Shown here: in pieces, positions 1 to 3,000 of the stretch | How the letters are laid out: every line of letters starts with the position of its first letter | How positions within the stretch are numbered: position 1 is the first letter of the stretch | From: a virus | Taxonomy: Duplodnaviria > Heunggongvirae > Uroviricota > Caudoviricetes | Virus record (IMG/VR): IMGVR_UViG_2526164693_000022 | DNA: 4,340 nt | Reading direction: 5' to 3' (one strand) | Program-made: the position numbers

Positions 1-3000
1 TTACTCCTCAGGTTCGTAAGCTGTGAAGACAGCGACCTCCGTCTGGCCGGTTCGGATTCGTACCTCGCAGAGGTCTTTCCTCGTTACCAGTGCCGTCACT
101 ATGACGGTTAAACAGATGACGATCAGGGCGATTAACATCGCCTTTTGCTGCTTCATAACCTGCTTCTCCTTGCCTTTCGGCGCGTAAGAGGCTAACCTAC
201 GTTTGTGAAGCATAGATTGGGCCTCAGATTAATGTTAAGCGTCTTGCAGGACGCGTAATGTTAACTGGGGCTTTTCTCTGTCTGCCTTACGGTGGCATGC
301 CCGAGGCAGACAGCCTCAAGCACCCGCAGCAATTCTACTTAACTCTCGCTTTACAGCAAACCGTTTTGCCCGATATGGGAATTCCCATACGGAATGAATT
401 CAGTTCCCCAGGCGCTCCATCAAAAACACAACCAGGCAGTAAACACCCACAACAGCAATAACAGCCAGAGCGCCTTCCATTACCAGTGAAATATCATCCG
501 ACATATTCCCTCCCTTGGTGTGAATCCCGGCGAACGTTTTTACCCCCACCGACAAATAACATATACTAGAAAAGCAATAGCTATAGCAACGCCTGCAAAT
601 GCATCTGGCCGGCTCATTGGTTCTCCCCCTGTGTCGCTTCTACTGCGATCTGACTGGCGTATTCGTTAATGGTAACGATAAGTTCTTGCTCGGCCTCATC
701 CAGACAACTACCGATACCTCGCCTGTCCACTTCAGAAGCATCGAAATCTGCACGAAGCCTGGCGACCTTCAGGATTGCGGACAACACCTCATCAGGGATT
801 GCCGGAGAGTTGGTTGACGTTTCCGAGATTATCCGAAAATTATTGGTTGACGAACCCTTATTTTCCCGAAAGTTTCCAGCCTGAAGCATGGCGGCGCGGT
901 GACACCAGATAATCCAGCCAAGCGCCATATCCCATACCATGTAATCTCTATCGCCATTTTTTGCTCTGCGGCGATCTACAGATTCTCCGAAACGCTTCTC
1001 CATAAATAATTCATAGGCTGCTCGTTCATCCGATACTGCTGCCAGTGATGCCAGCGCAATCCGTGCCAGCTCTTCCGCTTCTTCTGCTGGAAGCACAACG
1101 TTGCTACCCGGTCCGTATGTTTCGCGCCAATGCTGGATTGTCAGCAGTCGATCTTTGGTAATAGTGGTCATAGCTATTTCACCTTAATCTCAACATTTCG
1201 CAGCTTTAGCTCTACTGGCATGTCTGACTTTCCTGTTAATGCTAATGCGAGATTTTCTGGAGTAATGAGAGCAGTTATTGTTTTCCCCATCGCCAGACGA
1301 ATAATCATTCGTATTTCGCGATCGTCACATGCTCCTGGTCGAACAATTGATATTTGTCCGTTCATCTCACTCTCCTTTGATGCGAATGCCAGCGACGCGT
1401 AATGCGTGTTCTAGGTCAATCAGGTAAAGCCAACTGCCATTTTCTTTAGGTATCATGACATGTCGCTCATCTGCATTTATCGGGTGTCCATATCGAAGGT
1501 CGTAGCGAGTCGGTAATTGAACTTCCCGCGCTTCCAGTTCAGCAATACGCTTGCTCCCATCAGAGATAACGCCTTCGTAATACTCACGCTGCTCGTTGAG
1601 TTGTGATTTTGCTTCTTCCAGTCCATCCAGCAAATCAGCGATAATATCCGCTTCCCGATGACGGATGTGACGCTTAAACGCAGCAAGAGCCGCATCACAA
1701 TCCCGTTCAGCATTTGGGCTGTCCGGGGTAGCCTGATACCACGCCAGCGTCGATTGATAGTTTTGTGCTGCCTCACGCAGTGCCTGATAGTCAATCTTGC
1801 CCACTGGCTGCCTCCTTTGCCGGGATTTCTAACTTTTGAGTGGTTGTATCAAATTCAAACAACTTAACCACGTCATCAAACAGGACATAATCACCATCAG
1901 GATCTTCAGTCATATCAGCGCCACAATCCTGACCGCACGAGTCGCAACCTCCCATATCAAGCTCGTATCGCTTCAGGTTCGCGATATTTGATAAATTCAG
2001 CGCCAGTATAGCCAGATCATTAACCTCGTCTGCGATATACCCTGCACCATGTCCATACATTTCAATGCGGGATATGATTTCTTCTACACGTTGTTTTGTG
2101 ATCGTCATTTTTCTCTTCACTCCGATATACAAGGATTACTACACCCCCTCTGCTGATTGCGCGAGCTGGATCCCCTGGTTCCATGCCGTCAATTCCGAAG
2201 GCTTCGAAAAATGCATCCATTGCCTTCTGGCGTTGCTCCTGCTTACGGCGTTTATTCCATTTTTTCATGAACAACAGTGACAGCCATCGTCCGCTGCAGA
2301 ACATGATGTAGAAATAACCAAGGAGCGCTAGGCCGGTGTTCAGGGCTGTATCGATCGTTATCGTGGTGTTGATGTTCACTTCACACCTCTCTGTTTGTTG
2401 ATAAGTTCAATATCCTGCTGGCAACTGGCGCAAGCTCTGCATCCACGAACAGCCAGGCGTCGCCGCTCATCTATCGGATCGCCACACTCGCAACAATGAG
2501 TAGCAGATGGGGCATTACTATCGGATTTGTATTTTTGCAGGGAGAGATTGCGCTGCAATTCTTCGATTTCAGCGGCGTTGTCGATGATATCTGCCATTTT
2601 CCTTTCCTTCAGGCATGAAAAAAGGAGCCGAAGCTCCTTTGGTTTTAGAATTCGAATTGCCTTGCCCGCAGGCTTTTCAGCATTGGTCTGGCCCGCTGAA
2701 CTACGAAACTCGACTGGTCAAGCCGTGCCGCCTCTCTCAGTAGCACATCTCTGTTCTTCGTCACCATGTAGATGGTCTCAAACGCAATGTCATACAGCTT
2801 GTTCGTGTATGAGGAGTTCAGCTCTTTCATGATCGGATACAGGTGTTTGCTGAGGTCCTGGGCTTTTTCCATCCAGAGTTGCATGTAGCAGAGGAGGATG
2901 ATTTCCTCGTCTGTGAATTGTTGCTGTGGTTCTGCTTGTGCCGACTGCATGTTGCGAAGTTTCTTTTCGCACTCGATGAAGTATCTGCGTATCTGTCGGC

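Follow-up and report, generated by a model that had tools for sequence, protein, structure and literature searches.

Hok toxin genes are found both with a regulatory leader and, as in the hokD gene of Escherichia coli K-12, without one, which raises the question of whether a prophage-borne hokD gene still belongs to a complete, antisense-regulated locus. We addressed this question in the virus record IMGVR_UViG_2526164693_000022 (Caudoviricetes), a DNA of 4,340 nucleotides (nt) that is referred to as the window. An original prediction, made by reading the sequence, had proposed a complete hok/sok-type locus at its beginning; each feature that it listed was found at the coordinates given. Our analysis indicates that window 359..1 on the minus strand, together with an antisense gene at 205-275 on the plus strand, constitutes an intact hok/mok/sok type I toxin–antitoxin (TA) cassette of a lambdoid prophage resembling those of Shiga toxin (Stx) phages, most likely working like the hok/mok/sok system of plasmid R1. 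We put the probability of this reading at about 0.9. For each element within the window, we computed that it is present, where it lies and which alternative pairings it is predicted to form.

The toxin gene is preceded by a full hok-type leader

The hok open reading frame (ORF) encodes MKQQKAMLIALIVICLTVIVTALVTRKDLCEVRIRTGQTEVAVFTAYEPEE, a protein of 51 amino acids (aa) with 100% identity to K-12 HokD (RelF), as had been predicted. An identical protein, WP_000813254.1, is named HokD by RefSeq. The product matched the Pfam family PF01848 (HOK_GEF) with 81.6 bits against a cut-off of 22 (E-value 3e-23). The hidden Markov model (HMM) of the NCBIfam Hok subfamily gave 48.5 for this protein, below its cut-off of 73, and NCBIfam HMMs below their cut-offs were left out of the naming.

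Upstream of the hok start, the leader 325..151 matched the Rfam family RF01794 from end to end, with 114.9 bits compared to a gathering score of 59 (E-value 1.4e-26). This family is named 'sok'. As the match is to the hok-sense strand and reaches no further than the hok AUG, the family models the hok mRNA leader. In the same search hokC of K-12 reached 118.3 bits, the window 114.9, hokW 113.5, hokB 109.7, and two R1-type sequences 88.9 and 87.2. Folding and alignment, which had been suggested as a check for the tac, ucb and Sok target elements, located all three in a leader that is neither truncated nor disrupted (Table 1; element names tac, ucb, dcb, fbi and SD-mok, the Shine-Dalgarno (SD) sequence of mok, after PMC9841398). 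The hairpin that combines the mok translation start with the Sok target has a predicted energy of -14.1 kcal/mol (z = -3.65).

The promoter of the hok mRNA and the promoter-like elements on the antisense strand, both of which had been noticed before, could be assigned to hexamers matching the sigma-70 consensus at 8 of 12 positions for hok and at 7 of 12 for sok. Both sok hexamers are identical in the alignment with hokW-sokW, the related locus of an Stx2 phage. The predicted plus-strand RNA folds with a free 5′ tail of 14 nt, a long hairpin and a U tail (-29.2 kcal/mol, z = -5.2), as would be expected for the shape of Sok. Its coordinates coincide exactly with the sokW misc_RNA annotated in AP000422, and its offset of 6 nt from the mok AUG equals that of K-12 sokC/mokC.

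Table 1. Positions of the cassette elements and of other annotated features in the 4,340-nt window; minus-strand features of the cassette are numbered in their own 5′ to 3′ direction
Feature	Position	Strand	Details
hok/mok mRNA promoter	359..332	minus	-35 TTGCTG 359..354, 16-nt spacer, -10 TAGAAT 337..332
Predicted hok mRNA start	G325	minus	from alignment to the R1-type +1 (TATGAT-N6-G) and position 1 of the Rfam model
tac element	325..314	minus	GGGUGCUUGAGG; 5′ end of the hok mRNA
Long 5′ hairpin, then ucb	313..267	minus	predicted folds; hairpin 313..278, ucb 274..267 (AAAGCCCC)
mok translation-initiation/Sok-target hairpin	226..188	minus	SD-mok GAGG, mok AUG, loop CUUCACAAA, dcb GCCUC 192..188
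mok-like ORF	213..1	minus	70 aa; AUG 213..211; frame and stop codon common with hok
hok toxin ORF	156..1	minus	51 aa; AUG 156..154, stop 3..1; SD AAGGAG 171..166
sok promoter	170..198	plus	-35 TTGCCT 170-175, 17-nt spacer, -10 TAACCT 193-198
Sok antisense RNA gene (predicted)	205..275	plus	71 nt; complementary to the mok start region and leader
Ead/Ea22-like gene	1367-1804		just outside the Sp5-like segment
Genes of the Sp5-like segment	2105-4340		DUF4752, TraR/DksA zinc-finger, AntA/AntB antirepressor; attachment core ~3812-3817; host ymdF

Several further predictions in this region were set aside. The only promoter-like site that the promoter scan listed inside the leader (238..209, minus strand) is regarded as a chance match. 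Two plus-strand ORFs, at 23-187 (54 aa) and 258-461 (67 aa), lack any support and were taken as by-products of the opposite strand. A terminator scan of window 1-700 found none, as expected because the hok terminator lies outside the window.

The leader is predicted to switch between two structures

If the cassette works as in R1, a stable hok mRNA of about 415–420 nt would be made from a weak promoter. Its 5′ tac element would pair with fbi at the 3′ end and ucb would mask SD-mok; in this state the full-length RNA would be neither translated nor bound by Sok. Slow 3′ trimming would then take off fbi, upon which tac would pair with ucb and the mok start region would form the target hairpin. 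Ribosomes that initiate at the mok AUG would continue as far as the hok start and thereby permit translation of Hok, a coupling of hok to mok translation that has been shown for R1 (PMC9841398). The unstable, constitutively made Sok of about 71 nt from the opposite strand would pair with the mok start region and block mok, hence also hok, and the duplex would be cleaved. Once the supply of Sok stops, the 51-aa Hok would enter the inner membrane and kill or lyse the cell. In this scheme fbi, transcription, translational coupling, toxicity and the trigger are modelled on relatives and on the literature.

The structures predicted from the RNA follow this order. In a nascent RNA of 38 nt, tac pairs with the adjoining sequence in a hairpin spanning 325..294 (-21.2 kcal/mol), which in the model is the counterpart of the metastable structure reported for R1. 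The leader alone adopts the fold with tac and ucb paired (z = -3.5). As the window ends at the hok stop codon, we reconstructed the full-length mRNA from the window and the 3′ untranslated region (UTR) of the IMG/VR contig L030, which is 100% identical to the window over 1-420 and 99.3% identical over 1-2393. The O157:H7 locus L001, likewise 100% identical over 1-420, shares this 3′ UTR. In it fbi, CCUCAACGCACCCGC (CCTCAACGCACCCGC), and then a terminator made of a GC hairpin and a T-run come 51 nt past the stop codon. Judged by these relatives, the genome of the window probably continues with the same fbi and terminator. The locus is therefore complete only by inference, as fbi and the terminator are taken from L030 and L001.

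In the reconstructed full-length RNA, nt 1-12 (tac) were predicted to pair with fbi with probabilities of 0.95–1.0, and ucb with the SD-mok region. When at least 52 nt were removed from the 3′ end, the prediction flipped to the tac/ucb pairing and the SD-mok/dcb hairpin, which displays the mok AUG region.

Comparison between family members is consistent with these pairings. tac and fbi covary, being GGGUGCUUGAGG/CCUCAAcGCACCC in the window type, GGGUGCCUGAGA/UCUCAuGGCACCC in hokB and GGCGCUU/AAGCGCC in R1. We then used an alignment of 11 leaders (A3), consisting of six prophage sequences, K-12 hokB, hokC and hokE, and two plasmid types. The structure of the truncated form was paired in 83% of cells across the 11 leaders, compared to 36–47% in controls with slid partners. 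Eleven pairs had changed on both sides, five of them in helix 2, where columns 15/63 are occupied by GC in four leaders, UA in four, AU in two and GU in one. The covariation score of 0.167 was above that of the slid controls (0.06–0.09) and was reached by none of 500 shuffles. In addition, a G>A and a C>U difference between the 5′ hairpins of the window and hokW compensate each other.

The reading frame of mok varies within the hok family

As had been noted in the original prediction, the mok-like AUG lies in the frame of hok. We confirmed that the two start codons are 57 nt apart and that the ORF, preceded by SD-mok at 225..222, is open past the hok start. In a public collection, 4,316 blocks have a gene call for exactly this 70-aa mok-hok product, and the equivalent ORF in the AP000422 annotation is mokW.

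The tentative statement of the original prediction that mok of R1 is read in a different frame proved right. In the R1-type sequence the start codons are 58 nt apart, which gives a +1 offset from hok and an unrelated product of 70 aa. Across 230 nt this sequence is 100% identical to the ten top-listed records, and 2,660 plasmid records contain it with at least 99% identity. The implied view that an in-frame mok is unusual has to be given up. mok is in frame and ends at a stop codon common with hok in mokC/hokC and the mokA pseudogene/hokA of K-12 and in mokW/hokW of AP000422, and the frame is open in all seven distinct leaders of the hokC/D/W type collected in A3. K-12 mokB is out of frame with hokB. 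An IncFII plasmid variant encodes the same Hok protein as the R1 type behind a shorter, diverged mok leader, and its mok is in frame (71 aa). Compared at the level of sequence, the mok frame thus appears to vary within the hok family rather than being conserved. That mok can be in or out of frame within one family agrees with the published view that what matters is solely mok translation as far as the hok start, and not the Mok product (PMC9841398).

The in-frame arrangement could nevertheless mean that the 70-aa product is a functional proteoform, i.e. Hok carrying a basic 19-residue N-terminal leader, MLHKRRLASYAPKGKEKQV, with a toxicity, topology or regulation of its own. Both the window and all seven hokC/D/W-type leaders keep the ORF open and in frame, databases call the 70-aa protein, and ribosomes starting at the mok AUG would necessarily yield 70 aa unless they terminate or drop off. 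We consider this explanation improbable. Besides the variable frame (out in R1-type mok and K-12 mokB, in for the IncFII variant with the R1-type Hok), mok stop codons downstream of the hok start leave toxicity unaffected in R1, and amino-acid changes in Mok are considered irrelevant (PMC9841398). Moreover, the Sok target, the sok promoter and the hok SD overlap with the extension and alone explain conservation of its nucleotides, and HokW is toxic as the 51-aa protein alone (PMC8621323). The stronger version, in which the in-frame mok is not neutral in hokC/D/W-type loci and a Mok-Hok fusion of 70 aa is made in vivo as a distinct proteoform, for example as a differently targeted or delayed-action toxin, strikes us as very improbable; if it were true, Sok would control two toxic species instead of one.

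One feature of the hok coding sequence may concern the protein actually made. The codon of Hok Tyr47 is UAC and is followed by G, forming UACG at window 15-18 (minus strand). According to the introduction of a recent preprint, adenosine-to-inosine (A-to-I) editing of hokC, hokD and hokE mRNAs by TadA recodes Tyr to Cys, as in hokB. By analogy, the genomic reading of the window Hok could differ from the encoded toxin, if such editing applies here.

The closest tested relative supports phage release

The window locus was then compared with characterized systems. The hokW/mokW/sokW genes of the Stx2 phages VT2-Sakai (Sp5) and 933W (L0137/L0144/L0138) occupy the same position at the right end of the prophage, and in both the window and Sp5 the locus lies upstream of the Ead/Ea22, DUF4752, TraR-like and AntA genes, attR and ymdF. 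The loci are 92.35% identical over 365 nt (AP000422), with the same order of elements and an in-frame mok of 70 aa. They differ in four residues at the Hok C-terminus (FTAYEPEE in the window, FVDYESEK in HokW) and also in the Mok N-terminus. In Sp5, the sequence diverges just past fbi and lacks the CCCGCTTCGGCGGG-T-run terminator of L030, L001 and K-12. On sequence grounds, the window locus is best described as a HokD-type sister allele of hokW-sokW.

R1 hok/mok/sok (parB) is alike in architecture and predicted RNA switch, with tac/fbi, ucb and SD-mok/dcb elements, the metastable hairpin and the free 5′ tail of Sok, and it belongs to the same Rfam and Pfam families. It differs in being plasmid-borne, with post-segregational killing demonstrated, and in the offset of mok. 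R1 Hok has 44% identity with HokW (PMC8621323). The K-12 hokC (gef)/mokC/sokC locus resembles the window in its in-frame mokC of 69 aa, which ends at the hokC stop, and in the Sok offset mentioned above. Unlike the window locus, it lies in the chromosomal backbone rather than in a prophage, the region of its target hairpin is shorter, and an IS186 insertion 20 nt past the stop separates fbi from the gene.

hokW-sokW has been studied experimentally by Takada et al. 2021 (PMC8621323). HokW (51 aa) is toxic and is neutralised by sokW when this is transcribed from the sokW promoter, with RNase III and Hfq partly contributing; a mutation in the sokW -10 region abolished the antitoxin activity (PMC8621323). 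Both hokW and sokW RNAs were seen on Northern blots (PMC8621323). Mitomycin C treatment is followed by the disappearance of sokW and then by a RecA-dependent appearance of HokW in the inner membrane (PMC8621323). Deletion of hokW-sokW delayed growth arrest and halved phage release after induction, and had no effect on growth of uninduced cells (PMC8621323). In bioRxiv 10.1101/2025.08.07.668861, the HokD coding sequence itself was employed as a control of known toxicity.

Judging from hokW-sokW of Sp5, the window locus would most likely serve its prophage by speeding up damage to the membrane and the release of phage once induced; it may in addition help to retain the prophage or to exclude other phages. 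The original prediction of a functional prophage module for post-segregational killing or abortive infection is supported as far as the intact hok/mok/sok structure is concerned, whereas aid to lysis and phage release on induction is the only role established for the closest relative that has been tested (PMC8621323).

Could defence or retention still be the main role, through abortive infection or post-segregational killing, with lysis being secondary? A stable toxin mRNA combined with an unstable antisense RNA suits any stop in transcription of the locus, AP000422 labels mokW/hokW 'prophage maintenance', and R1 hok/sok on a high-copy plasmid lowered T4 plating, as cited in PMC8621323. This remains, in our view, a possible but rather unlikely main role: the only direct test in a prophage gave no growth effect without induction and a halved phage release after it (PMC8621323), and we found no curing or phage-exclusion data on this allele in the literature. 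We favour assistance in phage release as the main role.

The intact hokD locus is widespread and is truncated in K-12

Window 1-420 is 100% identical to loci of O157:H7 and other Shiga toxin-producing E. coli (STEC) that RefSeq annotates as type I TA toxin HokD. A homologue covering at least 80% of these 420 nt was detected in 3,889 of 5,426 complete E. coli genomes, with 755 records at 99% identity or more. The junction of relE and hokD typical of K-12 was found in 1,165 of the 5,426.

K-12 hokD lies in the Qin prophage downstream of relBE. It shares with the window only positions 1-170 (99.4% identity, including the hok SD), the Hok protein is identical, and its 3′ UTR with fbi and terminator is nearly identical to that of the contigs closest to the window. 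Everything upstream of window 170 is replaced by the 3′ end of relE, and K-12 hokD has no tac, ucb, mok start, Sok target or sok promoter; a search of the relBE-hokD region with RF01794 gave no hit. In the window this leaderless arrangement was not encountered. The full leader is present in place of relBE, as the original prediction had stated.

fbi is kept in the 3′ UTR of K-12 hokD although its partner tac and the whole leader are gone. This orphan element indicates that K-12 hokD is a truncated derivative of a locus like that in the window.

The window locus is an ordinary member of the most thoroughly studied type I TA family, its sequence is already annotated and its sister allele has been tested, and it therefore carries little weight as a discovery. 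Its value is that of a reference, as it shows the intact form of the truncated K-12 hokD, and this intact form outnumbers the truncated one in E. coli.

A number of observations weigh against an intact, R1-like cassette. Both promoters are weak matches to the sigma-70 consensus, and a promoter scan with a threshold of 9 of 12 consensus positions listed neither of them, because both fall below it. fbi and the terminator lie beyond window position 1, their 3′ UTR being supplied from L030 and L001. In the folding of the reconstructed RNA, 3′ truncations of 37–47 nt lead to another 5′/3′ pairing and not to tac/ucb; as these intermediate forms pair differently, folding leaves the exact point of 3′ processing undefined. 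The tested hokW differs at four Hok residues and at about 7.6% of nucleotides, and we found no experiment in the literature on this exact allele in its native leader. Finally, the introduction of bioRxiv 10.1101/2025.08.07.668861 refers to earlier work in which the chromosomal hokA, hokB and hokC were reported to be without post-segregational killing.

One alternative is that the locus is a silent relic, structurally intact but functionally inert like the chromosomal hok copies of K-12, and persists only because it hitch-hikes on prophage modules. The weak promoters fit such a relic, and O157-type genomes contain 4–8 homologous places each among the matches listed, so that copies could be redundant. 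Yet no element of the cassette is disrupted, hundreds of genomes share the identical 420 nt, and 4,316 blocks of the collection have kept the 70-aa ORF intact. Real decay looks otherwise, as illustrated by insertion sequences (IS) in K-12 hokA, hokC and hokE and by the replaced leader of hokD. Together with the expression and phenotype of the syntenic hokW-sokW (PMC8621323), these points make a silent relic very improbable, and we retain the interpretation of a working, R1-like cassette.

The cassette lies in a mosaic of prophage modules

Several known prophage modules make up the window, which is a recombinant. Positions 1-1060 are 99.4% identical to the neighbourhood of hokD in the nin region of the O157:H7 locus L001, and positions 2105-4340 are 99.6% identical to the right end of Sp5 with attR and the host gene ymdF. 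The contig L030 extends over 1-2393 and leaves the remainder uncovered. No single phage or complete E. coli genome record covers at least 80% of the window.

Just upstream of the hok promoter, two tiny hydrophobic ORFs are present on the minus strand, 400-504 (34 aa, MSDDISLVMEGALAVIAVVGVYCLVVFLMERLGN) and 540-617 (25 aa). The former is a hypothetical protein in the O157:H7 annotation and has no Pfam or NCBIfam match. Both could be small membrane peptides or chance ORFs.

A full-length match to the Rfam family RF02221 (sRNA-Xcc1) was found at 3315-3403 on the minus strand (69.1 bits, gathering score 53, E-value 1.3e-11). It is located approximately 40 nt upstream of the AntA/AntB antirepressor ORF (3274..2645), and at the same place in VT2-Sakai (L002 4447-4535). 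Between the antirepressor gene and the attachment region, a 22-nt inverted repeat with 86% complementarity and a 3-nt spacer spans 3565-3611 (plus strand). It is followed at 3637-3692 (plus strand) by four TTGGGGCA copies, which form two direct repeats of 25 nt at a distance of 31 nt. These copies lie about 125–175 bp from the Sp5-type attachment core (~3812-3817) and are probably arm-type binding sites of the integrase.

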